In this document: positions 21,660 to 63,508 of the stretch, one piece after another
Layout: each line of letters starts with the position of its first letter
Numbering within the stretch: position 1 is the first letter of the stretch
Origin: Candidatus Cloacimonadales bacterium
Lineage (GTDB): Bacteria > Cloacimonadota > Cloacimonadia > Cloacimonadales > JAFGVF01
Length of the DNA: 64,000 nucleotides
Direction: 5' to 3'
Assembly: GCA_963667035.1 (NCBI GenBank)
Contig: OY762964.1
Span: forward strand, 704,001-768,000
Program-made: the position numbers and the translations under genes
The notes under the pieces: generated by a model
The model's database searches: none
The model's input: only the letters and a program-made list of their open reading frames with translations
Told to the model about the DNA's origin: nothing

Positions 21660-22439
21660 TCACCATGTTAAAAAAGTAGGTGCAGAAGGTCTTACACTAT
21701 AACATGATTTGTCAGATATATTACGATTATCATTATCAAAAATAACGTCTAGACCTGTTACATCTTGCGTACTCATTGTTTCAAGGTAGCTTGTAAACAG
21801 AGAGTCGCTATGTGTTATTTTAACATAATGTGGAATACCGTTTCGTTGCTCCCAAAATGCATATTGATTAATCCTTCTCCCTAAGTTATTAGTGCTAATA
21901 GTGGAATCAGTAAAAGTAACTTGCGAAGATGTTGATAACTCAATTGCCTTTCTACTAAAATAGCTTGAGTTGTTAGTTGTTAAATGGATGTTCATCTCTG
22001 AGTAGAGTTCATTAATCTGCATGGGTAGTAGAAATAGTTTTGAATTATATAATGCACTCATAAAACAGCTTGTATCGTAAATCTCTAAGTCTTGCATGTA
22101 GAATACTCTTGCACCATTATATTGCTTATCAACAAGCTCTTTAGGTGTATGCCTTGTCCAGAAACCAATACTATCTGAGGGTAGTATCTCTCGAAGAACA
22201 TAATAGGCTGAATCGGAACAAATTTTTGTGAAAAGGCTGTCCCAGAGTGTTTTTACTTCAATCTCATATTGATTCAGTGTCGGTGTTGTAGTTATATGAG
22301 CTATTTCTGTAATTCGAGGGTCTGTAGATCTTATTGCTAACTGATCTCCTACATAGTTCAATTCCTTTAAATAACTAGATTCTGATAGTAATAGTAATGT
22401 ACAAGCTATTACTAATAATATTAGAAACGTTTTCTTCAT
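21660..22439 (-). CDS. secreted hypothetical protein
   Basis: Signal peptide MKKTFLILLVIACTLLLLS; GAGG RBS; no recognised domain. Confidence 0.55.
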   Translation of the reverse strand: MKKTFLILLVIACTLLLLSESSYLKELNYVGDQLAIRSTDPRITEIAHITTTPTLNQYEIEVKTLWDSLFTKICSDSAYYVLREILPSDSIGFWTRHTPKELVDKQYNGARVFYMQDLEIYDTSCFMSALYNSKLFLLPMQINELYSEMNIHLTTNNSSYFSRKAIELSTSSQVTFTDSTISTNNLGRRINQYAFWEQRNGIPHYVKITHSDSLFTSYLETMSTQDVTGLDVIFDNDNRNISDKSCYSVRPSAPTFLTW

Positions 22440-22708: not shown

Positions 22709-22737
22709 CAAAAAAACCCCTGCAATTGCAGGGGTTT
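22709..22737 (-). terminator. intrinsic terminator
   Basis: AAACCCCTGC-aatt-GCAGGGGTTT with a U-tract on the minus strand. Confidence 0.85.
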
Positions 22738-22757: not shown

Positions 22758-25688
22758 TTATTTCATCATTATCATTTTATTTGTAGCTTGGAAGTCACCA
22801 GAAGAGAGTTTATAGAAATAAACACCACTGGAAACGGTTTGATTATTGTTATCTTTACCATCCCATAAAACACTATGACTACCAACTGTGAAGTTATCAT
22901 TAATTAATGATTTAATCTTTCTTCCTTTGATGTCGTAAATATCAATTTGGACATTACCGGCATCTTTCAAATCGAAGGCAATATTAGTTGTTGGGTTGAA
23001 AGGATTAGGATAGTTACCCACTAATCTGGTTGAAGTAGGAGTAACACCATGGTCATCATTGCCAACACCACCGGCACTATATATACCAATGTCATCAACC
23101 AAGAAAGCAAGGGTACCATCTGAAACACAGTGGATACCAACTCTGATTAACTGATCCTCATAATCGGCAAGACTAACATTGATGTTTGTCCAACCTTGAG
23201 GAACAGAAAGAGGTGTATCACCGGAAATCACTATGAAATCTTCAGGACTAGTAGATCCATTAGAAACAGCAACTTCGAATTGGTCTTGTCCGTATTGAGT
23301 AGTTAATGATCTAGCCCAGAAGCTTACATAAGGTAGGTTGTTGAGTTCTACTGGCTCAGAGATTAACCAGTCATCATTAGCAGTTGATTCTGCAGCAAAT
23401 GTTGCTAAACATACATTCCCGCTATGGGCTGTTTGGTATTCTTCCATAGGTGGGGTAGTACTTTGAGGATCAAATGTAATAAAAGGCATAGCTTCACCGG
23501 CACCCGGGAAGGTTGCACCAGCCATAGAATACGTTTCACTTTGATCTATGTCATAAGTTGTCCAAGGATAAGAAGCTGGTTGCCATAAAGACATTTCTTC
23601 TAAGTCATCCATGAATAAAGCAGGAATATCCTGTTCTTGAATAAGTACCGGTAATTGACCAAATTGGAAAGATTCGCCTTCACTATACACTGAACTGAAA
23701 GTATAAATGAATGAACCAAAATCGTGATCAGTAATTTGATATGTAGTTGTATTAGTTCCTTCTACAAATGAAACAAACTCACCATCTCTGTAGATGTTAT
23801 AACCTATATGATCTCTATCTCTATCATAAACTCTTCCTGCTTCTCCGCTAACATTACCATTGCTGTCAATTCGTTGAATTCTTACAGGATTGGGGATGCT
23901 CCAGCTCACGGTTAAATCCACAACATACTCAAGACCGTAACTGAATTGGGTTGGCGGATAAAATGGTCTATCAACAGTAACTTCTGCATTTACAACGTTA
24001 CATGGTATAGACTCTCCGGGATTAAAAAGAGCTTTAACGACAAAGTCATGCTGTCCGAGAGGAACATCAGTTACAATGTATTCTAAATCTGATATTAACT
24101 CATTATTGGTAGGTATTGTATTGGTATCCATGTATATATTATAACCCTGAACGAGTGTGTTCATTCCAAGGAAACCAACTTTTACATTATCAATTGCCCA
24201 ACCAGTTGCCCATCCGCCGTTATCATCTGAATGGAAACCAATTAGTACATTAGATTGATCCAAGTATTCACTCAAATCTATAGTAATTGTTTGCCAGCTA
24301 TCTGAACCGGTTAAAGCTAGAAGAACATCCCATGTTGTTCCTCCATCCAAGCTAATGTTTACTGATGCTAACTGATTATATTGAGCAGTGAAGAAACTGT
24401 CGAAACTTAATGCACAATCAATTAGATTCGTAAAGTCCATAGTTGGCATAACTAGCCAATCTTCAGAACCGTCAGAGACATCTTCTTCACTAGTTTGATT
24501 AGCATCGTCATTTGTGTATATGTAAGTTGTATGAGCTGGAATTGGGAAATACTGACTTGACCCATTAGAACTAATTTGCCACCCAACTGAAGCGTTAGTT
24601 GTTGCATTCCAGTCAGTAGGAAATCCGGTTTGGAAATCCTCTTCTATATTATATTCAGGCAAACCGGGAGGTGCCCATTGCAACCAAACCCAGTTACCGG
24701 CAACATCTTCTGATAGGTTAGCAGGAGGAAGTACTAATTCATCCATTTGGGCATTAACTGTAGCAGGATTATCAGGGTCAATATTTAGATCAGTTTCAAT
24801 ATAATCAACATATCCTTCATATTCAACTTGAATATCATAGATACCTTCGTACACAGGAAGTGCACATTGACCATTTTCATCGGTATGTGTAGAATAAACA
24901 TCAAGCATAATTGAATTAGCGTCAGTTGGAATAGCTTTTACTAATGCATTGGGAATAGTAACATTAGTATACATGTTAGTAGCTGTAACATTAACTGTAG
25001 AGTTTGGTCTGATATCTCCTCTAGTTGCTTGAATAATATCATAGTTACCTGAAGTTGATTGTACCATAACAACAATACTTAAATCAGTAACAGTCCAATT
25101 ACTATCAATAGTTAAAGATTGATTGTATTGAGCAACATCTCCGTTTGTAGTTTGAGTGAAATCTTGTGCTTCATATACTTCAACGGTACAGAAGTATTCT
25201 TCATTAATCTTCCTTGTAACCAAGAAAAAGATTTGATTATCAGGAGTAGTAACATCACCGGTCAAAGTTACATCTGCTATAACATTAATAGCAACATCAG
25301 TAATTGTATAATTGAATGTTAAATCAATGGGACTGTTAGTGGGCTCAATAGTATTATAATGAGCTAAATAACGTTCATAACAATCATTTCCCCCACCAAT
25401 TTCAGGAGTTGTACCCTGGAATTGCACATGTGGTATACCATCGACAGCATACATAGCAGCCCTTTCCATAACGCCCGGGCTAGCATCATCAGTGTCAGCT
25501 TCCCAGATTAGTGGTATAAAGTAAGGGGCATTTTCATCATTATCAAGTTCGAGCAGACCTGCTCGAGCATCAGGACAGAATCCTCAGGTGGATGCTGTAA
25601 ACAATTCTGCTACAACACCTATTTGAGTTGCACAGATAATTGCAAACATGCTGATAAAAACAGAAAGTAGTATCGTTTTCTTAAGCAT
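22758..25688 (-). CDS. probable selenoprotein (976 aa): Omp28-like thioredoxin-fold domain with UxxC, carboxypeptidase-regulatory-like domain, cleaved-adhesin/FN3-like domains and FlgD-Ig/T9SS-type CTD
   Basis: AGGAG RBS and ATG at 25688; signal peptide MLKKTILLSVFISMFAIICA; 'VVAELFTAST-TGA-GFCP' (codon 35) in frame with the 22758-25469 ORF; 'GIPHVQF' cis-Pro loop; 'NDDWLIS' adhesin motif; SECIS-like hairpin. Confidence 0.85.
25549..25586 (-). promoter_or_regulatory. candidate bacterial SECIS element with the UGA codon
   Basis: mRNA reads UGA GGAUUCUGUCCUGAUGC UCGAGCA-GGUC-UGCUCGA: 7-bp stem with a G-initial apical loop 24 nt after UGA. Confidence 0.7.
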
Positions 25689-25908
25689 TTCTTATCTCCT
25701 TCTATGTTTATAGATATCCTTATCTCAAAGTTTCTTCTTTTCCTTCTGAATGTCAACGAAATAAGTTGACTATTATTTATTTCAAGCAAAAATCATTCCA
25801 TGCAACTATTGTTTACAAACTAAATCTACAGTACCGGATGACTAATTCTGTTTGTATTAAAAAGTGCTCTGCTTATTGCAGAGCATTATAAGATATAAAT
25901 TGATGTGT

Positions 25909-31633: not shown

Positions 31634-34600
31634 ATGAAAACAGTAAGTTTCAAATTGTTTTACGTTTTTCTAATTGCAATGTTTACACTCCTTTTACCTG
31701 CCACCGCATTTGCTGATGTATCGCCGATGGTGCAAAGCGTATGGGGAACAGGAACGGAGTGGAACAACAATTGTCCAAGTGATAATATCGGCTCAGGTGG
31801 GCACGCTGATGCAGGTACAATGGCGGTATCAACTGCTATGATAATGAAGTATTGGAATCACCCTGCAAACGGTGTAGGCTCTAATACTTATAATCATCCT
31901 GTATATGGTACTCTATTTGCCGATTTTGAAAATACTTCCTACAACTGGGAGTCAATGTCAAATACACTAGTATTAAGTGGTTCAAGAGTGCTAATCTCTC
32001 AAGCAGGTATTGCTTTGAACATGGATTATGGTACCAATGCTTCTTATGCTCCTATCGACAATGCCTTTACAGCATTAACTAATAACTTCAGATATGACGG
32101 TACTGCTCAATTGGTTAATAGAGATGACTATTCCAATGCAGCTTGGGAACAGCTTCTCAAGTATGAGTTAAATCAGGGAAGACCTATTTTATATAAGGCT
32201 GATACTCAGGACGGAGAAATTGGTTTTGTGATTGACGGATGGCGGAATGGTAATGAATTTCATGTTAACTGGGGCAAAGATGGCAATCTAAACGGTTACT
32301 TTACTATTGATTCTTTTAACTATGAAGGGATTGACCTTACAAATGGTCATAGAGCCGTTATTGGAATCTACCCAAGTTTAGGACCTCAGACTGTTGATGA
32401 GAACTTTGAAGGTGATTTCTCAGGATTTAACTGGCAGTTTGGAGGAAATTCCGATTGGACAATTACTACTAATGAACATTATTATGGTGTTCAATCTGCT
32501 AAGTCAGGTCAGATAAACCATAACCAGACATCCAGTTTGTATGTTCAGATAAATGTGGAAGCCGATGATGTAATTTCATTTAATCGTAAAGTTTCCTGTG
32601 AAAACTCCATGGGTTGGGAACCAACCTTTGACTATCTGTCTTTCTGGATAGATGATAATGAAATGGATAGATGGGATGGACAAACTACTTGGTCTTATGA
32701 AGAGTATCCTGTGACTGCAGGTGTCCATACTTTCAAATGGGAGTATAGAAAAGACGGTGCAACTATTGAAGGGCAGGACTGTGCGTGGATTGATGCAATC
32801 GATTTTCCTAATGGTGAGACCCCACTAAATCCGGTACAAAATTTCACAGCTGAAGTGGTTAATAACAACGATGTTGAAATGAACTGGGATATGCCTTTAG
32901 GAGCAACTAGAGACATTGTAGGGTATAGAGTTTATAGAAATGGACAAGAATTAATAACAGTAAGTAATCCTGAAGTATTAAGCTATACTGATACTAATCT
33001 TGCTAACGGAGAATACACTTATTATGTAAGAGCTTTCTATCAAGAAGGTTTATCAAATCCTTCAAACCCGATAACATTGGAAGTAGAAGTTCCTTATACT
33101 CCTACCAATTTAATTGCTGAAGTTGTTTCTGATGATGATGTAGCTTTGACATGGAGTCAACCTCCTACATTCAGAAACGGAAGATCATTAAACGGATATA
33201 AGATTTATAGAAATAATTCACTGATAGCTACTGTATCGGATGAATCAATTCTCAACTATAACGATAATGATTTGCCTCAAGCTGTGTACAGATACTATGT
33301 AACAGCCACTTATACAACAGGTGAATCTGCAGCATCCAATATAGCAATAGCATCTGTGGGAGTTCCTACTCCACCTACAGGCTTAACTGCTCAACTCGTT
33401 AATCGAAATGATGTTCTTTTGAATTGGGTAGCACCTCCAACTACACGTGAGTTATTAGGTTACAATGTCTACAGAGATGATGTTTCTATTGCTCAAGTTA
33501 ATGACGCTACTACAGTAAGCTATACTGACTTAAATGTTCCCAATGGAACTTATACATATAATGTAACAGCAATCTATTCTAACGGAGAATCTGAAGCAGG
33601 TACTTCTGCAACCATCTCAATTGAAGTAATGTATCCCCCAGTGAATCTGACTTATACAATTGAAAACCAAATAAATATTAGATTAGCTTGGGAAAGAGAT
33701 GTGAACACTCGTAATCTTCAAAGCTATTCAATCTTTAGAGATGGCCAACAGATTGCTATAATCTTTAATCCGGACAGACTTTATTATCTTGATGAAGATA
33801 TCGTAAATGGTGAGTATGAGTATTATGTTACAGCAACTTATACCTCAGGAACCTCAGAAGCTTCCAATAGTGTGAATGTATTGATGGAAGTTCTATATCC
33901 ATGCACTATCCTAAATGCAAGTGTTGATGGTGATGTGGCGACTCTAAGTTGGGATCGACCGGTTAATAGCGGAGGCTTAAGAAGTTTTAACGGTTATAAC
34001 ATTTATAGGGGAGGAAACTTAATAAGTTTTGTTGATAATCCATCAACTCTGACTTATCAAGATACAGGTTTAGCAAACGGTTATTACAACTATGAAGTTA
34101 CAGCTGTTTACACAACAGGCGAATCAATTCCCGTTTCAATTAATAATGTATTTATTGAAGTAGCTTATCCTCCAAGGAATCTTAGTGCTTCTCAAGAAGA
34201 TGATGATTTCATTTTAACTTGGAATGCTCCTGCAACTTCTGCCTCTCAGCTCTCTAGAAATGACAGAGTTACTCGTTCGATGAACGGTTACAAAGTATAT
34301 AGAGATGACACTGAAATAGCTCATATAACAGATACTGCAGTTTTAACCTATAGAGATGTTGCTTTAGTTAACGGCAACTATTCATATTATGTAACCGCTT
34401 TATATACAGCAGAGGAATCAATTCCTTCAAATGTTGTTGATATTGAAATGGATATTGCCTATCCACCGACAGCATTAGAAGGTACGGTTAATGATGATGA
34501 TATTAGCTTAAGCTGGACAGCACCTGTAAATAGTGGTGGTTTAGTTAGAAGCTTTATCAATTATAGAATCTATCGTGATGACTTGTTGATTGATACAACA

Positions 34601-37600
34601 ACAGAGTTAACCTATACAGATACTGACCTGGCAAACGGAAGCTACCGATATTATGTTACTGCAGTTCATGACGCGGGTGAGTCAACTGCTTCAAATACGG
34701 TAAATATGATTGTAGAAGTTCTATATCCTGCCAGTAACCTTAATACTGAAGTGTTCGATAAGAACAATGTAAGAATCAGTTGGATAGCTCCTGTAACAAG
34801 TGGTGGCTTAAGAAGCTTTAACGGTTACAAAGTTTATAGAAACGATGAAGAGATTGCTGAACTGAGCTCTTTGCAATATGAAGATTTAATCTTAGATAAT
34901 GGAACATATAGCTATTATGTGAAGGCCGTATATGATTCAGGTTTATCCGAAGCATCCAATAGCGATAGCAAAGTGATTGAATACCCATATCCGGTAACTA
35001 ACTTAACTGCCGTTGTTGATCAGGCAGAAGTTACATTAAATTGGGATTTACCACAAGGTACTTCCAGAAGCATTACTCATTACCAATTGTTCAGAAACGG
35101 TAATGAATTAGAAATGATAACTAATTCATTACAGACTGAGTATGTGGATAGTAATCTTTCTAATGGAACTTATACATATTATCTTGTTACTCACAATGAC
35201 TCAGATTCAGGTCCTTCTGAAGCATCCGAAGATATAACAGCTACAGTTGAAGTTCTGTATCCTCCTAGAAATCTGGTTGCTACAGTGATAGAAGACAATG
35301 TTTCCCTTAGCTGGACTGCTCCTCAAACAGGAGTCTTTGCCCGACTTGGAGCAAGAACAAGGGATTTGTTAACATACAAGGTTTATAGAGATGATGTTGA
35401 AATAGCTGAAACTACTGATCTGAGTTATGATGATAACAGCTTAAGTAATGGTACTTACAATTATAACATTAAAGCAGTTTATACTTCAGGAACTTCAGAA
35501 GCTTCCAATACTGAGGAAGTTTTAGTTGAGATTTTGTATCCTGCTACAAACTTCTCTGTAAATGTAGTTGAGGATGACGTAAGCTTAAGTTGGGATTCTC
35601 CAGCAACTTCAGGAGGTTTAACTAGAGCATTCCTTGGTTATAAGATTTATAGAGATGATGTTGAAATAGCTGATATTACAGAAACTACTTATTTTGATTC
35701 AGACTTAACTAACGGTACATACAGTTATTATGTTGTCGCTGAATATACAACCGGTAGTGCTAATCCTACCGAAACTCTTCAGGCTATTGTTGAAGTATTG
35801 TATCCTCCAACAGCATTAACAGGAGAAATTGAAGACTACAATAATATCAGACTTAGTTGGACTGCTCCTGTAAACTCAGGCGGTTTGAGAGACTTTGTTG
35901 AATATGAGTTATTGAGAAACGATACTGTAATTATTACCCAAACAGAGTTAACATACTTCGATCAATTAATACCTGACGGAGATTATACATATCAAGTTAG
36001 AGCTGTTTATAGTAGTGGTACTTCAAGTTTATCAAACAGTGTATCGTTTAATGTAGAATATCCTTATCCGCCAAGTAATCTTCAAGCAAACGTTGTGGAT
36101 GATGATGTGAATTTAAGTTGGAATGCTCCAACAAATGGTCGAGTGTTTGTTCAGTATCATATATACAGAAATGATGAACTACTAGTTAGTGTAGATACTA
36201 ATTCATATAGTGATACTAACCTTCAAAACGGACATTATGAATACTATGTACAAGCAGCTTATTCAAACAGTGTATCTGAAGCTTCCAATACTGTTTCCAT
36301 AGATATGGAAGTTCTATATCCAGCTACTAACCTCAGTTACAGCACAGATCAGGATGAAGTAACTCTTACTTGGGATTCTGCAGTAACTTCAGGTGGTCTT
36401 ACTCGTAACTTCTTAGGTTACAAGATTTATAGAAATGATGCTGAAATAGCTGAAGTATCTGAGCTTACTTATACAGATGTAGATCTCGCAAATGGTGTTT
36501 ATAACTATTACATAAAAGCAAACTACACAAGTGGTTTATCAGAGTCTTCAAACACAATAACAGCAACAGTAGAAGTTCTCTATCCTGCATCTGACCTTGC
36601 TTATAGTGTTGATCAGGACGAGGTAACCCTTACTTGGAATGCTGTTGCAACATCCGGTGGACTTACACGTGATTTCTTAGGATATAAAGTCTATAGAGAT
36701 GACGTTGAAATAGCTGAAGTAACTGAGCTTACTTATACAGATGTAGATCTCACAAACGGTGTTTATGACTATTATATAAAAGCAAACTACACAAGTGGTT
36801 TATCAGAGTCTTCAAACATTGTAACAGCAACAGTAGAAGTTCTTTATCCAGCAACTAACCTTGCTTATAGCGTTGATCAGGACGAAGTAACCCTTACTTG
36901 GGATAATGCAGTAACTTCAGGTGGTCTTACTCGTGATTTCTTAGGATACAAAATCTATAGAGATGAGACAGAGATTGCGGAAGTAACCGAGCTTACTTAT
37001 ACAGATACTGACCTTGCAAACAGTGTTTATGACTACTATGTGAAAGCTAATTATACAAGTGGACTATCAGAAGCTTCGAACACGGTAACAGCAACTATAG
37101 AGGTTCTTTATCCTGCAACTAACTTAGCTTATAGCGTAGATCAGGACGAAGTAACTCTTACCTGGGATGCTGCATTAACATCAGGTGGACTTACTCGTAG
37201 CTTCTTAGGATATAAAGTCTATAGAGATGAGGAAGAGATTGCCGAAGTGACAGAGCTTACTTATACAGATGTTGACTTAGCTAACGGTGTTTATGACTAT
37301 TATGTAAAAGCAAACTACACAAGTGGCTTATCAGAGTCTTCAAACACAGTAACAGCAACAGTGGAAGTTCTTTATCCTGCAACTAACCTTGCTTATAGTG
37401 TTGATCAGGACGAAGTAACCCTTACTTGGAATGCTGCTGCAACATTCGGTGGACTCACACGTGATTTCTTAGGTTATAAAGTTTATAGAGATGACGTTGA
37501 AATAGCTGAAGTAACAGAGCTTACTTACTTAGATGCAGACCTTACAAATGGTGTTTATGACTACTACGTCAAAGCTAACTACACAAGTGGCTTATCTGAA

Positions 37601-40600
37601 GCTTCAAACACAATAACAGCAACAGTAGAAGTTCTTTATCCAGCAACTAACCTTAGTTATAGCGTTGATCAGGATGAAGTAACACTTATTTGGGATTCTG
37701 CTGTAACCTCAGGTGGACTTGATAGAAGTTTCTTAGGTTATATGATTTATAGAGATGAAGTTGAGATAGCAGAAGTACCAGAAACAACTTATACAGATAT
37801 TGACCTTGCAAATGGTGTATATGACTACTATGTAATAGCTAATTATGCAAGTGGCTTATCAGAGACTTCAAACACAGTAACAGCAACAGTGGAAGTTCTT
37901 TATCCAGCAACTAACCTTGCTTATAGCGTTGATCAGGACGAAGTAACCCTTACTTGGGATGCTGCAGTAACTTCAGGTGGTTTGTTACGTGACTTCTTAG
38001 GTTATAAGATTTATAGAGATGAAGTTGAGATAGCAGAAGTAACAGAGCTTACTTATACAGACACTGACCTTACAAATGGTGTTTATAGCTACTATGTTAA
38101 AGCTAATTATACAAGCGGACTATCAGAAGCTTCAAACACAATAACAGCAACAGTAGAAGTTCTTTATCCAGCAACTAACCTTAATTACAGTGTTGATCAG
38201 GATGAAGTGACTCTTACTTGGGATGCTGCAGTTGTAACCGGTGGTCTTGATAGAAGTTTCTTAGGTTATAAGATTTATCGAAACAATTTGGAGATTGCTG
38301 AAGTTACCGAGTTAACTTATACAGATGTAGATCTTGCAAATGGAATTTACAACTACTATGTAAGAGCTGATTACACAAGTGGATTAGCTGAAGCTTCCAA
38401 TACAGTTTCAGCAACAGTGGAAGTTCTTTATCCTGCAACTAATCTTAGTTATAGTGTAAATCAGGATGAAGTAACTCTTAGTTGGACAGCAGTTGTTACG
38501 GAGGGTGGTCTAGACAGATCCTTCTTAGGCTACAAAATCTATAGGGATGATGTAGAAATTGCTGAAACAGTAATGACTACTTATGTAGATGTAGATCTTG
38601 CTAACGGAACTTATGATTATTATATAGAAGCTAATTATACAAGCGGACTATCAGAAGCTTCAAACACAGTGACAGCAACAGTAGAAGTTCTTTATCCTGC
38701 AACTAACCTTGCTTATAGCGTAGATCAGGATGAAGTATCCCTAACTTGGGATGCACCTATAACAGTAGGTGGATTGACTCGCAGTTTTGTGGGTTATAAG
38801 GTATATCGTGACCTTATGGAAATAGCTGAAGTTGCGGAGCTAGGCTATACAGATACAGGCTTAGCAAACGGAACATATTCATACAGTGTAAAAGCGGTCT
38901 ATGATTCAGGTTTATCAGCATATTCAAACTCCGTTGAAGTGCTAATTGAAGTTCTCTATCCTGCTCAGAATCTCAGTGGTGCTGTTACCAATGACGATGT
39001 AGCTTTAACTTGGAATGCTCCATCAGTATCAGGAAGTAGAAGCTTAACCGGATACAAAGTATATAGAGATAATGTAGAAATCGGCGATGTTACCGAGTTA
39101 TCCTATAATGACGAAGATTTAGCAAACGGAACATATACTTATCACGTTGTAGCATATTATACAACTGGCGATTCAGAACCTTCAAATAGTTTTGTTGCAG
39201 AAGTTGATGTACCTTATGCACCTTCTAATCTTACCGGAAGCGTAAATGAAGATACGGTTACACTTAACTGGGATTTACCTGCAGTTTCGGGTGGATTAAG
39301 AAGTTTCAACGGATATTTTATTTATAGAAATGGTGGGTTAATAACAGTATTGAACAACTCATCAGCACAAACTTACTTTGATGAGAATCTTGCTAACGGT
39401 GATTATGAGTATTATATAGTTGCCTACTATGATAGTGGACTTTCAGCGGCTTCTAATACAGTTACAGTAAATGTAAATGTATTACCTGACCTATTCCCTC
39501 CAACTAACCTCCAGGCAGTTGTTAATAATCTTAGGGATGTTACTCTTTCATGGGTTGCTCCTGAGAATAATCCTGTAAGTTACAAAGTTTATCGTAATTC
39601 AGTAGAGATTGCTGAAGTTTCTATGACTGTATTCAACGAGACATTGATTGAGAACGGAACCTATACTTACTGGGTGAAAGCAGTTTATAATGAAGGTATC
39701 TCATCTAATTCAAACTCGGTAATTGTTAACGTTGAAGTAGCTTATGCTCCTAGTGATTTAGTAACTTCAGTTGATGATAACGATGTTTCTTTAACTTGGA
39801 CTAATCCGGAAGCCGGAGAGATTGGAATAATAGTATACAGAGATGATGTTGAGATTGCTTTGATTAATAATAGTACAACTAATACATATACTGACATGAA
39901 TCTCATGAACGGTACTTACAGCTATCACTTAAAAGCTATTTATACATCAACAGTTTCACAAGCCTCTGCATCTGCATCTGCAACAGTTGAGATAATATAT
40001 CCTGTCTCTGCACTTCAATATGAAGTAAATACCGACAGTGTTACTCTTAACTGGAGTGAACCACTTGACCCTACCGGTCTTGTTAACTACAAGGTATATA
40101 GAAATGCTGAAATGATTGCTACAGAGACTACACTCAGTTATACAGATAATGGTCTTGTTAACGGTGATTATGACTACTATATCGTTGCTCAGTATTCTAC
40201 CGGAGATTCTAATCCTTCTAACACAGTTACAGCTTTAGTTCAGGTTGCATATCCTGTTCAGAATGTACAAACTGCTGTTAACGGTGATGAAGTTACTGTA
40301 AGCTGGGATGAACCTTCTGATGTTGTTGGACTTCAATCATATAGTATTGAAAGAGAAGGTGAGTTTGTCGGTTCAACTCAACAGTTAAACTTCACAGATA
40401 CAGATGTTGTAAACGGTATTTATACTTACACTGTAAAAGCTAGTTATGAAGTAGGATTTTCAGAACCTGTAAATGCTATACCTGAAACAATTGTGCTTGT
40501 TGCTTATGCTCCAACTGCACTTACGCAACAGATTAATGAAAATATAGTTACACTGAACTGGAATGAGCCATCTGATATGAATGCCTTCCAAGTTTATAAT

Positions 40601-42379
40601 GTATATAGAGATGGCAGCTTAGTAGGTTCATCTGATACTAATGAATATACAGACGAAAACCTTGCTAATGGAACCTACGAGTATTATGTAGTAGCAGTTC
40701 ATTCAATCGGTGAGTTGTCTGTAACTTCTAATCAATCAAATACAATTCAGGTTGTTGTTAGTGAGGCTTATCCTCCAACCGGTCTTAACTATGTTATTGA
40801 TAATGGTAATGACTTAACATTAACATGGGATGCTCCGGTAGATACTAATGATATTTCTCACTACAATGTATATAAAAATGGCTCTCTTGAAACAGGAGTA
40901 ACAGAATTAACTTACACTGAGAATGACCTTGTTAACGGAACCTATGAGTATTATGTAGAAGCTTATTACAATTCGGGAGCAACAGCAGCATCAAATCATG
41001 TTACACTTAATGTTGAGGTTGCTTATGTACCAACAGGACTAGCAGTAGTAGTTACAAGTAACAATGTAAACTTAACTTGGACTGCTCCTACTGATAATGT
41101 TGGATTATTATCATATAACGTCTACAGAGATGAAGCTCTCATCGGTAACTCAACAACAGCTACCTATGATGACTTGAGTCTTGCTAACGGTACATACGAC
41201 TACACTGTTTCAGCAGTATATGGAGTAGGTGAGTCTACTCAGACAGCTCCGGTTGTTGCAAATATAGAAATAGCTTATGTACCTTCAAATCTGACTACTT
41301 CTGTTACTGATGATGATGTAATTCTAAGTTGGGATGCTCCGGCTGATGTAACAGGTCTTGTATCGTATAATGTATATAGAGATGGTTCAAGCATTGGAAA
41401 CACTACAACTGCTTCATTTACAGATTCAGACTTAGCTAACGGTGATTACAGCTATACTGTTTCAGCAGTGTATGGTACCGAAGAATCGGCTCAGTCTACT
41501 GCAAGTTCTGCTCATGTTGAAGTAGTTTATGTAGCCCAAAACCTAACTTCAAGTGCAGTTAATGATGATGTAATTCTCACATGGGAAGCTCCTGTAGATA
41601 CATTTGGTATACAACACTATAATATATATCGTGACACCGAGTCTATCGGAACATCAACCGAGTTGACTTATACAGACAGTGACCTAATGAACAGTCATTA
41701 TATATATACTGTTTCAGCAGTATATGGTGCCGGTGAATCAGGTCAGATTACAACAGAAATTGATGTTGTTGTAGCATACGAGCCTCAAATAGCTGAAGCT
41801 GACGTGCAAACAGGAACTCACTATGCATTGTTGAATTGGACTGCTCCTACTGATAATGGTTTCCTTACCGGTTATCGTATCTATAGGTTAATCCCGGGAC
41901 AACTTGAAAGTCCTGAACTTTGGATAGAAGTTGAGAACCTTGTTAATGCTGTAACTTATACGGATGAAGATTTTGCTACACTTACTGACGGATTGTATCT
42001 GTATGCTGTTGCTTCAGTATATATGGAAACAATGGTTTCAGACGTGACGTTTACTAATGTAATTGACCCTACTGGAGGAAACGAAGTTGTAACAACTCCT
42101 GCAGTAACAAGTTTGAGTTCAGTATATCCTAACCCATTCAATCCATCAACTTCAGTCAGCTTCTCGTTATCCGAGAAACAAAGAGCGGTTGTAAAAGTTT
42201 ATAACAGTCGTGGACAATATGTTAAGACTATTATAGATGATACATTAGAAAAGGGTGAACACTGTATTAGTTGGAATGGTAGAGATAAGAACAATCGTGG
42301 TCTTGCTTCAGGAGTTTACTTCATTAGAATGCAGACAGCCGATTACTCAAAATCTATTAAAGCTGTTCTCATGAAATAA
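31634..42379 (+). CDS. giant secreted protein (3581 aa): inactive peptidase C10-like domain, roughly 35 FN3-like repeats and FlgD-Ig/T9SS-type CTD
   Basis: Signal peptide; C10-like 'AMIMKYWNHP', 'ELNQGRPI', 'FVIDGW...FHVNWG...NGYF'; repeated 'V.LTW.AP...GYKVYRD...Y.D..L.NG.Y.YYV.A.Y..G.S..SN'; YPNPFNP CTD. Confidence 0.88.
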   Translation: MKTVSFKLFYVFLIAMFTLLLPATAFADVSPMVQSVWGTGTEWNNNCPSDNIGSGGHADAGTMAVSTAMIMKYWNHPANGVGSNTYNHPVYGTLFADFENTSYNWESMSNTLVLSGSRVLISQAGIALNMDYGTNASYAPIDNAFTALTNNFRYDGTAQLVNRDDYSNAAWEQLLKYELNQGRPILYKADTQDGEIGFVIDGWRNGNEFHVNWGKDGNLNGYFTIDSFNYEGIDLTNGHRAVIGIYPSLGPQTVDENFEGDFSGFNWQFGGNSDWTITTNEHYYGVQSAKSGQINHNQTSSLYVQINVEADDVISFNRKVSCENSMGWEPTFDYLSFWIDDNEMDRWDGQTTWSYEEYPVTAGVHTFKWEYRKDGATIEGQDCAWIDAIDFPNGETPLNPVQNFTAEVVNNNDVEMNWDMPLGATRDIVGYRVYRNGQELITVSNPEVLSYTDTNLANGEYTYYVRAFYQEGLSNPSNPITLEVEVPYTPTNLIAEVVSDDDVALTWSQPPTFRNGRSLNGYKIYRNNSLIATVSDESILNYNDNDLPQAVYRYYVTATYTTGESAASNIAIASVGVPTPPTGLTAQLVNRNDVLLNWVAPPTTRELLGYNVYRDDVSIAQVNDATTVSYTDLNVPNGTYTYNVTAIYSNGESEAGTSATISIEVMYPPVNLTYTIENQINIRLAWERDVNTRNLQSYSIFRDGQQIAIIFNPDRLYYLDEDIVNGEYEYYVTATYTSGTSEASNSVNVLMEVLYPCTILNASVDGDVATLSWDRPVNSGGLRSFNGYNIYRGGNLISFVDNPSTLTYQDTGLANGYYNYEVTAVYTTGESIPVSINNVFIEVAYPPRNLSASQEDDDFILTWNAPATSASQLSRNDRVTRSMNGYKVYRDDTEIAHITDTAVLTYRDVALVNGNYSYYVTALYTAEESIPSNVVDIEMDIAYPPTALEGTVNDDDISLSWTAPVNSGGLVRSFINYRIYRDDLLIDTTTELTYTDTDLANGSYRYYVTAVHDAGESTASNTVNMIVEVLYPASNLNTEVFDKNNVRISWIAPVTSGGLRSFNGYKVYRNDEEIAELSSLQYEDLILDNGTYSYYVKAVYDSGLSEASNSDSKVIEYPYPVTNLTAVVDQAEVTLNWDLPQGTSRSITHYQLFRNGNELEMITNSLQTEYVDSNLSNGTYTYYLVTHNDSDSGPSEASEDITATVEVLYPPRNLVATVIEDNVSLSWTAPQTGVFARLGARTRDLLTYKVYRDDVEIAETTDLSYDDNSLSNGTYNYNIKAVYTSGTSEASNTEEVLVEILYPATNFSVNVVEDDVSLSWDSPATSGGLTRAFLGYKIYRDDVEIADITETTYFDSDLTNGTYSYYVVAEYTTGSANPTETLQAIVEVLYPPTALTGEIEDYNNIRLSWTAPVNSGGLRDFVEYELLRNDTVIITQTELTYFDQLIPDGDYTYQVRAVYSSGTSSLSNSVSFNVEYPYPPSNLQANVVDDDVNLSWNAPTNGRVFVQYHIYRNDELLVSVDTNSYSDTNLQNGHYEYYVQAAYSNSVSEASNTVSIDMEVLYPATNLSYSTDQDEVTLTWDSAVTSGGLTRNFLGYKIYRNDAEIAEVSELTYTDVDLANGVYNYYIKANYTSGLSESSNTITATVEVLYPASDLAYSVDQDEVTLTWNAVATSGGLTRDFLGYKVYRDDVEIAEVTELTYTDVDLTNGVYDYYIKANYTSGLSESSNIVTATVEVLYPATNLAYSVDQDEVTLTWDNAVTSGGLTRDFLGYKIYRDETEIAEVTELTYTDTDLANSVYDYYVKANYTSGLSEASNTVTATIEVLYPATNLAYSVDQDEVTLTWDAALTSGGLTRSFLGYKVYRDEEEIAEVTELTYTDVDLANGVYDYYVKANYTSGLSESSNTVTATVEVLYPATNLAYSVDQDEVTLTWNAAATFGGLTRDFLGYKVYRDDVEIAEVTELTYLDADLTNGVYDYYVKANYTSGLSEASNTITATVEVLYPATNLSYSVDQDEVTLIWDSAVTSGGLDRSFLGYMIYRDEVEIAEVPETTYTDIDLANGVYDYYVIANYASGLSETSNTVTATVEVLYPATNLAYSVDQDEVTLTWDAAVTSGGLLRDFLGYKIYRDEVEIAEVTELTYTDTDLTNGVYSYYVKANYTSGLSEASNTITATVEVLYPATNLNYSVDQDEVTLTWDAAVVTGGLDRSFLGYKIYRNNLEIAEVTELTYTDVDLANGIYNYYVRADYTSGLAEASNTVSATVEVLYPATNLSYSVNQDEVTLSWTAVVTEGGLDRSFLGYKIYRDDVEIAETVMTTYVDVDLANGTYDYYIEANYTSGLSEASNTVTATVEVLYPATNLAYSVDQDEVSLTWDAPITVGGLTRSFVGYKVYRDLMEIAEVAELGYTDTGLANGTYSYSVKAVYDSGLSAYSNSVEVLIEVLYPAQNLSGAVTNDDVALTWNAPSVSGSRSLTGYKVYRDNVEIGDVTELSYNDEDLANGTYTYHVVAYYTTGDSEPSNSFVAEVDVPYAPSNLTGSVNEDTVTLNWDLPAVSGGLRSFNGYFIYRNGGLITVLNNSSAQTYFDENLANGDYEYYIVAYYDSGLSAASNTVTVNVNVLPDLFPPTNLQAVVNNLRDVTLSWVAPENNPVSYKVYRNSVEIAEVSMTVFNETLIENGTYTYWVKAVYNEGISSNSNSVIVNVEVAYAPSDLVTSVDDNDVSLTWTNPEAGEIGIIVYRDDVEIALINNSTTNTYTDMNLMNGTYSYHLKAIYTSTVSQASASASATVEIIYPVSALQYEVNTDSVTLNWSEPLDPTGLVNYKVYRNAEMIATETTLSYTDNGLVNGDYDYYIVAQYSTGDSNPSNTVTALVQVAYPVQNVQTAVNGDEVTVSWDEPSDVVGLQSYSIEREGEFVGSTQQLNFTDTDVVNGIYTYTVKASYEVGFSEPVNAIPETIVLVAYAPTALTQQINENIVTLNWNEPSDMNAFQVYNVYRDGSLVGSSDTNEYTDENLANGTYEYYVVAVHSIGELSVTSNQSNTIQVVVSEAYPPTGLNYVIDNGNDLTLTWDAPVDTNDISHYNVYKNGSLETGVTELTYTENDLVNGTYEYYVEAYYNSGATAASNHVTLNVEVAYVPTGLAVVVTSNNVNLTWTAPTDNVGLLSYNVYRDEALIGNSTTATYDDLSLANGTYDYTVSAVYGVGESTQTAPVVANIEIAYVPSNLTTSVTDDDVILSWDAPADVTGLVSYNVYRDGSSIGNTTTASFTDSDLANGDYSYTVSAVYGTEESAQSTASSAHVEVVYVAQNLTSSAVNDDVILTWEAPVDTFGIQHYNIYRDTESIGTSTELTYTDSDLMNSHYIYTVSAVYGAGESGQITTEIDVVVAYEPQIAEADVQTGTHYALLNWTAPTDNGFLTGYRIYRLIPGQLESPELWIEVENLVNAVTYTDEDFATLTDGLYLYAVASVYMETMVSDVTFTNVIDPTGGNEVVTTPAVTSLSSVYPNPFNPSTSVSFSLSEKQRAVVKVYNSRGQYVKTIIDDTLEKGEHCISWNGRDKNNRGLASGVYFIRMQTADYSKSIKAVLMK
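36311..38950 (+). repeat. ten tandem 264-bp (88-aa) intragenic repeats
   Basis: 'VLYPA' codons recur at 36311, 36575, 36839, 37103, 37367, 37631, 37895, 38159, 38423, 38687 and 38951. Confidence 0.92.
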
Positions 42380-50209: not shown

Positions 50210-51872
50210 CAGACTGTTGACAAAGCTATGAGTAAGATTTCATAGCTTTGTCTTTTTTTAGCTTAAAATAAGAACATCAATCATTGACAGATTTCTCCAA
50301 ATATTATACTTAAACCATCATAATTAGAGGTGGTTATGCTTAAAAAAGTTTCTGACACACAGTCCCAAATGGAGTTTGTAATAATAGATGATTTAGTACC
50401 GGTAGATCACATACTAAGGAAAATCGATAGCGTAATAGATTTTTCATTCATTTTAGATAGAACAGCGCATTTGTATTGTTCTACTACCGGTCGTCCTCCA
50501 ATTCATCCTATTACTCTTTTCAAAATGCTTTTTATTGGCTATCTATTCGGTATTCGCTCGGAAAGACAATTGGTCAAAGAGATTGAGGTCAATGTGGCTT
50601 ATCGTTGGTTCTTAGGCTTTGGACTAACTGATAAAGTACCTCATCACTCAGTCTTCAGTCAAAATCGTAGAAGGCGATTTAATGATAGCAGCGTATTCGA
50701 AGAGATTTTTATAGATATAGTGAAGTTAGGCATTAAACATGGATTAGTTGATGGGAAGATACTTTATAGCGACTCAACCCATCTAAAGGCAAATGCTAAT
50801 AAAGGTAAATTCGAGGATATTGAAGTTGAGGTATCCTCCAAGAGTTACTTGGAAGATCTTAACACAAGCGTTGATGAAGATCGGAAGGCTCATGGTAAGA
50901 AACCTTTACCTCCTAAGGATAACAATCTTAAAGGAGGAGCATCACCTAAAGTAAAAAATATCAAGTCTAGCACAACAGATCCCGATAGTGGTTTTATGAC
51001 CCGTGATAGAAAGCCTCAAGGCTTCTTCTACTTAGATCATAGGACAGTCGACCATAAAACGAACTATATAACCGATGTTCACATTACTCCCGGCAATGTA
51101 AATGATAGCACCTGCTATATTGACAGGTTACAGTTCCAACAAAAGGTTTATGGTTTTAATGTTCAGGCAGTAGGGCTTGATTCAGGATATGATACAATTA
51201 ACATTTGTAAGCAACTGGTAGATATGAATATTATGGGAGTCCTTGGCTACAAAAGACAGGGAGGTAAGAAAGGTCTATTTAAAAAGAACAAATTTACATA
51301 TAATTCCCGGAAGGATGTTTACATTTGTCCATGTAATAAAGAGTTAAATTATAGAACAACGAGCCGTGATGGCTATAAAGAATACAAGTCGAATCCTAGT
51401 GAATGCAAGAATTGTCCAATGCTAAGTAAATGTACAGAAAGTAAGTCTTCTCAAAAAGTAATCACTCGTCATGTCTGGGAAGAGAGCAAAGAGATAATCC
51501 ACAAGAATAGGTTAACATTATGTGGGAAAGAGATATACAAGAGGAGAAAAGAAACCATTGAGAGAAGCTTTGCCAATGCAAAGCAACTTCATGGCTACCG
51601 ATATGCAAAATATCGAGGAATAGAGCGAGTTCGAGAACAAGCTTATCTAACAGCTATCGTGCAAAATATCAAGAAACTCGTAAAATACCTTTTCAAAGGT
51701 AAATTAGGGAAATTAATAGCAAAATTTATCATCAATTACATGATTTTCAACTCCAATTTACACGAAAATAGAGCTAAATCTCGCATGTTTAGGTTTGGAC
51801 TCAGTTAAAATGAAGAAAAATGACTTTCAACAATATATCCATGTAAATTAGAATGTTTTTGTCAACAATCTG
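50210..51872 (+). mobile_element. IS1182-family insertion sequence, copy 1 (1663 bp)
   Basis: TIRs CAGACTGTTGACAAA / TTTGTCAACAATCTG; flanked by the 24-bp direct repeat AAGCCTACTGATATAAGTAGGCTT (50186-50209, 51873-51896). Confidence 0.93.
50330..51808 (+). CDS. IS1182 family DDE transposase
   Basis: 'LVPVDHILRKID', 'GRPPIHP..LFKML..GYLFGIRSER', 'DSTHLKANA', 'TTDPDS', 'DSGY', 'RKETIERSFA..K'. Confidence 0.95.
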   Translation: MVMLKKVSDTQSQMEFVIIDDLVPVDHILRKIDSVIDFSFILDRTAHLYCSTTGRPPIHPITLFKMLFIGYLFGIRSERQLVKEIEVNVAYRWFLGFGLTDKVPHHSVFSQNRRRRFNDSSVFEEIFIDIVKLGIKHGLVDGKILYSDSTHLKANANKGKFEDIEVEVSSKSYLEDLNTSVDEDRKAHGKKPLPPKDNNLKGGASPKVKNIKSSTTDPDSGFMTRDRKPQGFFYLDHRTVDHKTNYITDVHITPGNVNDSTCYIDRLQFQQKVYGFNVQAVGLDSGYDTINICKQLVDMNIMGVLGYKRQGGKKGLFKKNKFTYNSRKDVYICPCNKELNYRTTSRDGYKEYKSNPSECKNCPMLSKCTESKSSQKVITRHVWEESKEIIHKNRLTLCGKEIYKRRKETIERSFANAKQLHGYRYAKYRGIERVREQAYLTAIVQNIKKLVKYLFKGKLGKLIAKFIINYMIFNSNLHENRAKSRMFRFGLS

Positions 51873-61845: not shown

Positions 61846-63508
61846 CAGACTGTTGACAAAGCTATGAGTAAGATTTCATGGCTTTGTCTTTTTTTAGCTT
61901 AAAATAAGAATATCAATCATTGACAAAAACCCCCTTAGATTATACTTAAACCATCATAATTAGAGGTGGTTATGCTTAAAAAAGTTTCTGACACACAGTC
62001 CCAAATGGAGTTTGTAATAATAGATGATTTAGTACCGGTAGATCACATACTAAGGAAAATCGATAGCGTAATTGATTTTTCATTCATTTTAGATAGAACA
62101 GCGCATTTGTATTGTTCTACTACCGGTCGTCCTCCAATTCATCCTATTACTCTTTTCAAAATGCTTTTTATTGGCTATCTATTCGGTATTCGCTCGGAAA
62201 GACAATTGGTCAAAGAGATAGAGGTCAATGTGGCTTATCGTTGGTTCTTAGGCTTTGGACTAACTGATAAAGTACCTCATCACTCAGTCTTCAGTCAAAA
62301 TCGTAGAAGGCGATTTAATGATAGCAGCGTATTCGAAGAGATTTTTATAGATATAGTGAAGTTAGGCATTAAACATGGATTAGTTGATGGAAAGATACTT
62401 TATAGCGACTCAACCCATCTAAAGGCAAATGCTAATAAAGGTAAATTCGAGGATATTGAAGTTGAGGTATCCTCCAAGAGTTACTTGGAAGATCTTAACA
62501 CAAGCGTTGATGAAGATCGGAAGGCTCATGGTAAGAAACCTTTACCTCCTAAGGATAACAATCTTAAAGGAGGAGCATCACCTAAAGTAAAAAATATCAA
62601 GTCTAGCACAACAGATCCCGATAGTGGCTTTATGACCCGTGATAGAAAGCCTCAAGGCTTCTTCTACTTAGATCATAGGACAGTCGACCATAAAACGAAC
62701 TATATAACCGATGTTCACATTACTCCCGGCAATGTAAATGATAGCACCTGCTATATTGACAGGTTACAGTTCCAACAAAAGGTTTATGGTTTTAATGTTC
62801 AGGCAGTAGGGCTTGATTCAGGATATGATACAATTAACATTTGTAAGCAACTGGTAGATATGAATATTATGGGAGTCCTTGGCTACAAAAGACAGGGAGG
62901 TAAGAAAGGTCTATTTAAAAAGAACAAATTTACATATAATTCCCGGAAGGATGTTTACATATGTCCATGTAATAAAGAGTTAAATTATAGAACAACGAGC
63001 CGTGATGGCTATAAAGAATACAAGTCGAATCCTAGTGAATGCAAGAATTGTCCAATGCTAAGTAAATGTACAGAAAGTAAGTCTTCTCAAAAAGTAATCA
63101 CTCGTCATGTCTGGGAAGAGAGCAAAGAGATAATCCACAAGAATAGGTTAACATTATGTGGGAAAGAGATATACAAGAGGAGAAAAGAAACCATTGAGAG
63201 AAGCTTTGCCAATGCAAAGCAACTTCATGGCTACCGATATGCAAAATATCGAGGAATAGAGCGAGTTCGAGAACAAGCTTATCTAACAGCTATTGTGCAA
63301 AATATCAAGAAACTCGTAAAATACCTTTTCAAAGGTAAATTAGGGAAATTAATAGCAAAATTTATCATCAATTACATGATTTTCAACTCCAATTTACACG
63401 AAAATAGAGCTAAATCTCGCATGTTTAGGTTTGGGCTCAGTTAAAATGAAGAAAAATGACTTTCAACAATATATCCATGTAAATTAGAATGTTTTTGTCA
63501 ACAATCTG
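61846..63508 (+). mobile_element. IS1182-family insertion sequence, copy 2 (1663 bp)
   Basis: Same TIRs as copy 1; flanked by the 25-bp direct repeat AAAGGGATGCTGACAGCATCCCTTT (61821-61845, 63509-63533). Confidence 0.93.
61966..63444 (+). CDS. IS1182 family DDE transposase (protein identical to copy 1)
   Basis: Identical 492-aa translation. Confidence 0.95.
   Translation: MVMLKKVSDTQSQMEFVIIDDLVPVDHILRKIDSVIDFSFILDRTAHLYCSTTGRPPIHPITLFKMLFIGYLFGIRSERQLVKEIEVNVAYRWFLGFGLTDKVPHHSVFSQNRRRRFNDSSVFEEIFIDIVKLGIKHGLVDGKILYSDSTHLKANANKGKFEDIEVEVSSKSYLEDLNTSVDEDRKAHGKKPLPPKDNNLKGGASPKVKNIKSSTTDPDSGFMTRDRKPQGFFYLDHRTVDHKTNYITDVHITPGNVNDSTCYIDRLQFQQKVYGFNVQAVGLDSGYDTINICKQLVDMNIMGVLGYKRQGGKKGLFKKNKFTYNSRKDVYICPCNKELNYRTTSRDGYKEYKSNPSECKNCPMLSKCTESKSSQKVITRHVWEESKEIIHKNRLTLCGKEIYKRRKETIERSFANAKQLHGYRYAKYRGIERVREQAYLTAIVQNIKKLVKYLFKGKLGKLIAKFIINYMIFNSNLHENRAKSRMFRFGLS

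Follow-up and report, generated by a model that had tools for sequence, protein, structure and literature searches.

A mis-annotated exported selenoprotein predicted in Cloacimonadota, and relatives in which UGC probably encodes selenocysteine

Decoding of an in-frame TGA

Does a lone in-frame TGA end a bacterial gene, or does it encode selenocysteine (Sec) in a protein whose front is missing from its annotation? The question is raised by a minus-strand gene in a 64,000-nucleotide stretch of DNA from a Candidatus Cloacimonadales bacterium (contig OY762964.1, positions 704,001 to 768,000), here called the window and numbered from its first letter. The source genome (G000) is 98% complete; other genomes are numbered from G001, loci carry L-numbers and database proteins P-numbers. 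We compared the gene with a phylum set of 232 Cloacimonadota genomes and with a comparison set of 201 genomes from the phylum of G232. The analysis confirmed, as a prediction from sequence, that the gene is a mis-annotated exported selenoprotein.

On read-through, the frame comprises 976 codons (25688-22758), from an ATG at 25688-25686 to a TAA at 22760-22758. Its sole in-frame TGA is codon 35 (25586-25584), within VVAELFTAST*GFCPDAR. A Shine-Dalgarno sequence, AGGAG, lies 7 nt 5' of the ATG (25696-25700, minus strand) and is missing before internal starts. Residues 1-20 (25629-25688, minus strand) form a predicted signal peptide, probably cleaved near A20/T21. The prediction rests on hydropathy, the best 12-residue value being 2.75 from the upstream start versus 0.85 from the internal one, and on conservation, K-rich or hydrophobic leaders preceding the motif in homologs too. 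The start assigned by the open reading frame track, 25469, is 73 codons downstream of the ATG, with neither a Shine-Dalgarno-like run nor a hydrophobic leader. Database versions of the protein and of three orthologs begin 3' of the TGA (883-903 aa, with the first 73-78 residues missing), and two of these truncated entries are named 'choice-of-anchor J domain-containing protein'. The original prediction for this locus had claimed a tracked protein without a signal peptide, an extension through one TGA to a proper start, and truncation by gene callers; all three hold. It had also raised sequencing error. Contigs from three runs of one sample, which are not independent and are probably the source data, are identical over 25000-25900 and show no alternative letter at the TGA codon.

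The source genome encodes Sec machinery over the cut-offs, namely selA (526 bits), selB (327.9 bits) and selD (379.2 bits), the last carrying its own TGA. It has a tRNA-Sec with anticodon UCA, and its tRNA-Trp has anticodon CCA. TGA is an ordinary stop there, ending 228 of 1793 stop-free stretches longer than 200 codons. A search of the phylum set for the N-terminal redox head of the protein found it in 199 of the 232 genomes (150 matches listed and 259 further; per-genome TGA counts rest on the matches listed). A collection-wide genome scan, from which 76 loci were kept, including Marinimicrobia- and KSB1-labelled records, gave 89 aligned hits. Their codon at position 35 is TGA in 69, TGC in 15 and TGT in three, with one hit misaligned and one not covering the site. 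TGA homologs, including those from Marinimicrobia- and KSB1-labelled records, contain no second stop within the alignment and have an undamaged leader upstream of it. Every TGA-bearing genome among the matches listed (60 of 60) has either selA (57, judged by eye) or a UCA tRNA-Sec (the other three). Across 42 aligned heads of 19-73% identity, U35 (TGA read as U, or else C) and C38 are invariant, and position 35 aligns with the first Cys of CxxC. The original prediction had named alignment to Trp as evidence against Sec. True Cys forms occur in sister clades from genomes lacking selA: in the large genome family f3, no selA was found over the cut-off in 98 genomes, and the Omp28-like proteins fetched from it are encoded with Cys at the site and group in a clade of their own.

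The earlier claim of a stem-loop, UCGAGCA-GGUC-UGCUCGA, with its loop 24 nt after the UGA was likewise correct. Hairpins were scored with our own script against the bacterial Sec insertion sequence (bSECIS) criteria of PMC13188914, section 5: a loop of 3-9 nt, a stem of 4-16 bp, G within the first two loop positions, a spacing of 16-37 nt, and -7.5 kcal/mol or lower. With 7 bp, a 4-nt GGUC loop and -9.2 kcal/mol, the hairpin at 25549-25566 (minus strand) falls within all of these published limits. An equally stable SECIS-type hairpin appeared in 1 of 2000 synonymous-codon shuffles of the gene and at 8 of 3930 coding positions drawn at random from the source genome, and the hairpin beats synonymous shuffles in 46 of the 69 TGA homologs. 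Its register depends on lineage, the loop lying about 24 nt after the UGA in source-type genomes and a few others and 18-20 nt after it in most (L107-L178).

Some of the hairpin data weigh against Sec decoding. The folding energy of the entire 71-nt stretch does not stand out from dinucleotide shuffles (z -0.84), the other 23 of the 69 TGA homologs fail to beat their own shuffles, and the homolog shuffles drew synonymous codons with the source genome's AT-rich codon weights, a choice that biases the comparison towards the real sequences. The TGA might also be a real stop, in a pseudogene or split gene or through a sequencing error, or it might be a Trp codon. Its normal use as a stop in this genome fits such a reading, as does the shorter protein that databases call from an internal Met; however, a product this short would lack an export signal. 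Pseudogene and error were rejected because the TGA is kept in 69 homologs, each otherwise free of stops over the alignment and with its leader preserved, and because the three assemblies of the one sample agree at it. A code with TGA as Trp was rejected on the CCA anticodon of tRNA-Trp, the use of TGA elsewhere as a stop and the alignment of the position to Cys. We give these alternatives almost no credence; codon 35 is, on the predicted evidence, almost certainly decoded as Sec by SelB and tRNA-Sec(UCA), guided by the GGUC hairpin. Each of the observations that the original prediction had named as speaking against Sec was looked for and none was made, and its interpretation, for which it had pointed to the Sec genes and to TGA in homologs, is therefore supported.

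Four exported Sec candidates were found in the source genome. A paralog, L014:4258-6126 (contig C1, TGA at 1142356, plus strand, ~622 aa), has the same UxxC head and a GGUC loop at 24 nt on a different body, with choice-of-anchor D, FN3 and sorting-tail regions. L069:3509-4525 (contig C1, TGA at 2102763, plus strand) is an unrelated exported CxxU candidate with a signal peptide, a GGUC hairpin at 29 nt and a sorting tail; it matches 123 of the 232 genomes, most strong matches having one TGA, and matched no NCBIfam selenoprotein model. At L068:3509-4630 (contig C1, TGA at 2216569, minus strand), the TGA directly follows a signal peptide and precedes an 11-bp GGUC hairpin, and TGA homologs occur in two other genomes of the genus (3 of 41 searched). 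A scan of the source genome for CxxU and UxxC alone was set aside, its 122 candidates being mostly spurious. An 11-bp hairpin after a TGA also passes the SECIS filter at contig C1 434053 (plus strand) and 875435 (minus strand), with similar sequence at both sites, and is likely an intergenic repeat rather than a SECIS.

Cys-codon relatives and tRNA-Sec(GCA)

Alternation of Cys codons and TGA at position 35 had been anticipated and was seen, but most of the Cys-codon forms do not appear to be true Cys forms; they track a tRNA-Sec whose anticodon is GCA. The hairpin is retained in Cys-codon homologs, where it beats shuffles in 11 of 18 with a median of -9.65 kcal/mol. All five Cys-codon genomes tested have a tRNA-Sec over the Rfam cut-off in which the anticodon is GCA, a G precedes the terminal CCA and the variable arm is long. 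Genes of this GCA type lie at L226 (G164), L227 (G123), L228 (G114), L229 (G137) and L230 (G117), and at L241-L262, and in 8 of 21 cases the GCA tRNA-Sec gene is within 1.5 kb of selA.

A pattern search of the 232 genomes found the GCA form in 24, four of which also have a UCA copy, and UCA alone in 73. G009 and G209, two of 23 hits of a separate search, and G055, from the pattern search, were dropped, as they were not tRNAs. In 29 genomes the listed matches span the site and show no TGA; of these, 22 have the GCA form, two have only UCA and in five neither was found. Among the 60 TGA genomes in the matches listed, the GCA form occurs in only one, which has both. Three genomes with partial matches were left out of this tally, which was compiled by hand and includes kin that are not independent; we claim no statistical test across these kin.

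The pattern extends to other Sec sites. Under uniform synonymous shuffles, a significant hairpin is present in 29 of 37 Cys-codon copies from GCA genomes, and both the selD and the Omp28-like genes of these genomes have TGC or TGT plus a hairpin at the Sec site. In a sub-branch of the head with C-x-x-U (L309, G128), it is the resolving position that now holds Sec. Counterparts of this variant with Cys codons in G116, G118, G119 and G120 (L295, L298, L303 and L304) have the hairpin shifted to follow the second Cys. An unrelated CxxU family has three TGC forms among the 24 motifs found, all of them from GCA genomes.

We had considered the Cys-codon homologs to be Sec-to-Cys reversions with leftover hairpins, and dropped this explanation after the hairpin and GCA tRNA-Sec results; it may hold for G141, which has TGT, no hairpin and a UCA tRNA. 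A tRNA of the Cys-charged selC* type has U73 in the available parts of PMC5389517 and PMC7609411, and is disfavoured because the relatives' tRNA has G73. These data suggest that Sec is probably read at UGC in the relatives with the GCA tRNA. Recoding of UGC to Sec by tRNA-Sec(GCA) is known from Aeromonas salmonicida (Mukai et al. 2016, as relayed in part by PMC11415595), and a Cloacimonetes-type (7/5) tRNA-Sec was described in the same work (as relayed in part by PMC5330540). The relatives resemble the A. salmonicida type in having a tRNA-Sec body with GCA, G73 and a long variable arm, and TGC plus a hairpin at the Sec site. This recoding does not apply to the source genome itself, which uses UCA and UGA.

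On balance, we moderately favour a family of exported selenoproteins that spans the phylum and falls outside all models scanned, with some two dozen Cloacimonadota genomes encoding its Sec, and that of other selenoproteins, by UGC with a SECIS read by tRNA-Sec(GCA). If so, no selenoprotein finder would tell UGC-encoded selenoproteins from ordinary Cys proteins, and some of what is recorded in selenoprotein evolution as 'Cys homologs' would therefore be hidden Sec. The UGC observation also supplies named target genes for sense-codon Sec recoding in a lineage besides Aeromonas.

Structure, export and predicted role

The head (aa 21-228; 25005-25628, minus strand) was modelled with a predicted local distance difference test score of 96.3 from a 42-sequence alignment, and consists of a thioredoxin fold (~aa 22-116) and an Ig-like beta-sandwich (~aa 119-228). 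U35 and C38 of the U35-G-F-C38 redox motif (25575-25586, minus strand) are placed at the start of helix 1, and P86, in the cis-Pro position of a G-I-P loop, is invariant in the 42 heads. The best structural match is HBP35 (PDB 5Y1A; Z 22.2, root-mean-square deviation 2.5 A over 203 residues), which agrees with the Omp28/thioredoxin-like UxxC head first proposed. PDB 2AXO is second (Z 18.4) and the next matches are at about Z 11; thioredoxins match model residues 2-97 (Z 10-11), and PDB 2R2C matches residues 99-208 (Z 11.1). A single-sequence search of the head against PDB gave nothing, while profile and fold searches did find matches.

The body begins with a carboxypeptidase-regulatory-like beta domain (aa 231-315; 24744-24998, minus strand, as are all features of this body; PF13620, 32.9 bits, cut-off 32.3). 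A MAM/cleaved-adhesin-like jelly-roll domain follows (~aa 345-506; 24171-24656; PF00629, 25.9 bits, below the cut-off of 26.4) and in the model is apparently inserted in a beta-sandwich (aa 320-343 and 507-572). The model also suggests an FN3-like beta-sandwich at ~aa 576-685 (23634-23963), with a low-confidence loop at 601-624. NF038128 matches the protein in two stretches, the best (763-867; 81.6 bits, cut-off 30) falling in a choice-of-anchor J (cleaved-adhesin-type) domain at ~aa 690-873 (23070-23621), and PF07675 (cleaved adhesin) matches three of 28 aligned homologs and not this protein. A type IX secretion system (T9SS) type A sorting domain occupies aa 893-976 (22761-23012; TIGR04183, 37.7 bits, cut-off 23; PF18962, 38 bits, cut-off 27). 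The sorting domain of the original prediction was found, as was a resemblance to its adhesin-type modules, but its FN3-like module is seen in the model only, Pfam fn3 giving no match in the protein. 'Adhesin' and 'FN3' here denote domain resemblances, not established functions. The full-length model has a predicted template modelling (TM) score of 0.47, and its fold search, which gave only low-TM matches (0.08-0.19) to FN3/Ig/reelin/MAM-rich proteins, was dropped for domain assignment.

SprA, PorU and PorV were found over their cut-offs when T9SS components were searched for in the source genome, in which well over 100 proteins match the same C-terminal tail. Cloacimonadota are among the phyla that may have a T9SS, according to the available part of PMC11285876. 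The last 400 aa of the protein are common to 14 other large secreted proteins of the source genome with unrelated N-termini. Among 56 complete TGA homologs, 355-927 residues follow the U, and a PNPF-type tail motif ends 46. The long MAM/cleaved-adhesin body was seen only in four genomes of one genus, namely the source genome and those of three of 88 scored hits (61-69%), and in a few close database proteins. The head, in contrast, occurs in up to eight copies per genome on varied bodies, so it is the constant, conserved unit.

In the mechanism that we propose, the protein would cross the inner membrane on its signal peptide and then be exported by the T9SS through its C-terminal domain, which PorU would remove as it anchors the remainder to the surface, by analogy with HBP35. 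The head would act as a thiol-disulfide oxidoreductase: the U35 selenolate would attack a disulfide or oxidised sulfur of an extracellular substrate, and C38 would resolve the intermediate as a Se-S bond. The beta-sandwich stalk and the two MAM/cleaved-adhesin modules may hold the head off the cell or bind a protein or particle substrate. In an anaerobe that degrades biopolymers, the likeliest role would be to open disulfide-bonded proteins by reduction or to maintain the redox state of surface enzymes. Because HBP35 reduces insulin, and requires both Cys to do so (PMC2907840, in the portion available), and is translocated to the surface by the T9SS (PMC3120885, likewise), we lean towards a disulfide reductase at the surface that uses a selenolate as its nucleophile and is carried on a binding stalk. 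Related organisms are anaerobic degraders of proteins and polysaccharides in the part of PMC8542988 available, which fits with opening of disulfide-bonded substrates. Several points count against a reductase. The head is only 13-16% identical to HBP35, and a common fold leaves the direction of the redox reaction unfixed, HBP35 having also complemented an Escherichia coli dsbA mutant (PMC2907840, in the portion available). No redox partner or electron donor is encoded beside the gene in Pfam and NCBIfam scans of its neighbours. P0004 and P0009 (56-57% identical) keep the whole architecture with the U position lost, and homolog L285 (G133) has Ser at that position, so loss of the redox pair need not entail loss of the scaffold.

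It is also possible that the protein is a Sec disulfide oxidase or isomerase, or a chaperone, that works in the periplasm or at the translocon on proteins secreted by the T9SS. The dsbA complementation and the well over 100 tail-matching proteins agree with this, and electrons might be supplied by DsbD-like, CxxC Omp28-like lipoprotein and TlpA/ResA-like genes that stand in a row elsewhere in the source genome (L067:89-2675, contig C1 ~2748350-2750935), a possible periplasmic electron relay or source. The sorting tail and some 650 residues of stalk and adhesin-type modules argue, however, for a surface position. Sec, moreover, generally favours low-potential reductase chemistry, and we consider an oxidase or isomerase unlikely. 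A Sec surface antioxidant or a sulfur or metal handler, protecting the envelope by scavenging peroxide or polysulfide or by binding haem or metal, appears rather doubtful. Up to eight head copies per genome on varied bodies would fit general protection, and HBP35 binds hemin through its non-thioredoxin part (PMC2907840, in the portion available). Against such a role, HBP35 showed no protection from oxidative stress (same source), and the motif is UxxC with a thioredoxin-type Pro, not one of the TxxU/UxxT peroxidase motifs of PMC13188914 Table 1. We find it improbable that the protein serves mainly as an adhesin or scaffold, its Se-S pair turning over little and working as a structural or regulatory switch. 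P0004 and P0009, and the sharing of the C-terminal 400 aa with 14 proteins of unrelated N-termini, are what such a scaffold would predict, but the 42 heads, at 19-73% identity, show no variation at U/C, the resolving Cys or the Pro, and the part that stays constant from body to body is the head. In a further homolog, L302 (G140), the motif is degenerate, as in P0004, P0009 and L285, with the U or the resolving Cys lost.

Terminator-like hairpins flank the gene, one 3' of its stop (22714-22737, minus strand; intrinsic type) and one closing the upstream gene (25885-25865), so the gene is probably transcribed alone; a promoter scan of the sequence was at chance level (16 versus 16.8). Nearby, a 259-aa exported protein (21660-22439, minus strand) had no Pfam or NCBIfam match, and its homologs immediately follow the ortholog, on its downstream side, in L070 (two copies) and in L072, not in L071. 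A 3581-aa protein (31634-42379, plus strand), in which 13 stretches match part of NF041611 (CbhB) below the cut-off, is probably a repeated Ig/FN3-type surface protein. An IS1182-family transposase over its cut-off is encoded at 50330-51808 (plus strand), and a 492-aa open reading frame of the same length (61966-63444) may be a second copy.

Comparison with known systems

The original prediction had asked whether the family was already described. A homologous UxxC family is catalogued: NF045500, 'Omp28-related selenoprotein', corresponds to the hypothetical protein GOS_C in PMC13188914 Table 1, and GOS_C was reported with 74 Sec and 312 Cys sequences, a thioredoxin-like fold and UxxC (Zhang and Gladyshev 2008; PMC2398784, in the part available). 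The main text of PMC13188914, a 2026 catalogue, does not contain the words T9SS, Omp28 or Cloacimon and gives the related family only as a hypothetical protein. Our literature search, which left most subscription journals outside its reach, found no paper pairing Omp28 with a selenoprotein. The PMC2398784 dataset or Mukai et al. (2016) may already contain clade members or GCA tRNAs. For the clade described here, public gene calls omit the catalytic front of a surface protein that is widespread, and take its name from its tail; anaerobic biopolymer degraders would therefore have more selenium chemistry at their outer surface than is counted.

Classical Omp28 is a Cys-only lipoprotein, and the source genome has a lipoprotein-like CxxC copy of it elsewhere (L067). 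The Omp28 family (PF11551, NF033782; PDB 2R2C) and DUF1223 (PDB 2AXO) share the fold family of the head, but membership of PF11551 was rejected (13.9 bits, cut-off 34.9). HBP35 of Porphyromonas gingivalis has the same two-domain head, motif place, signal peptide and T9SS tail. It differs in having Cys in place of Sec, in its length of 344 aa and in lacking stalk and adhesin modules.

GOS_C/NF045500 is the closest described selenoprotein group. Its members have UxxC at the same place, a homologous thioredoxin-plus-beta-sandwich head, a leader and a hairpin after the UGA, and 6 of 10 extracted members end in a T9SS-type tail. BLASTP of our protein against these ten gave E values of 1e-13 to 4e-10 with the motif aligned and the head 22-28% identical. 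The members differ, however, in a longer N-terminal extension, and none of the ten matches the MAM/cleaved-adhesin body. Our protein reaches 37.6 bits against the NF045500 model, below its cut-off of 200; the model is passed by none of the 232 Cloacimonadota genomes versus 11 of the 201 in the phylum of G232. In a quick, unrooted tree of 135 heads, which had no approximately unbiased test and has long branches flagged, the ten NF045500 members group together (SH-like approximate likelihood ratio test 100), the present family forms a group of 90 (99), and the two are joined at 84. Membership of NF045500 was rejected on the bit score and the separate clade. The protein would thus work like GOS_C and HBP35 yet stand outside NF045500, as a separate branch of a known selenoprotein group.

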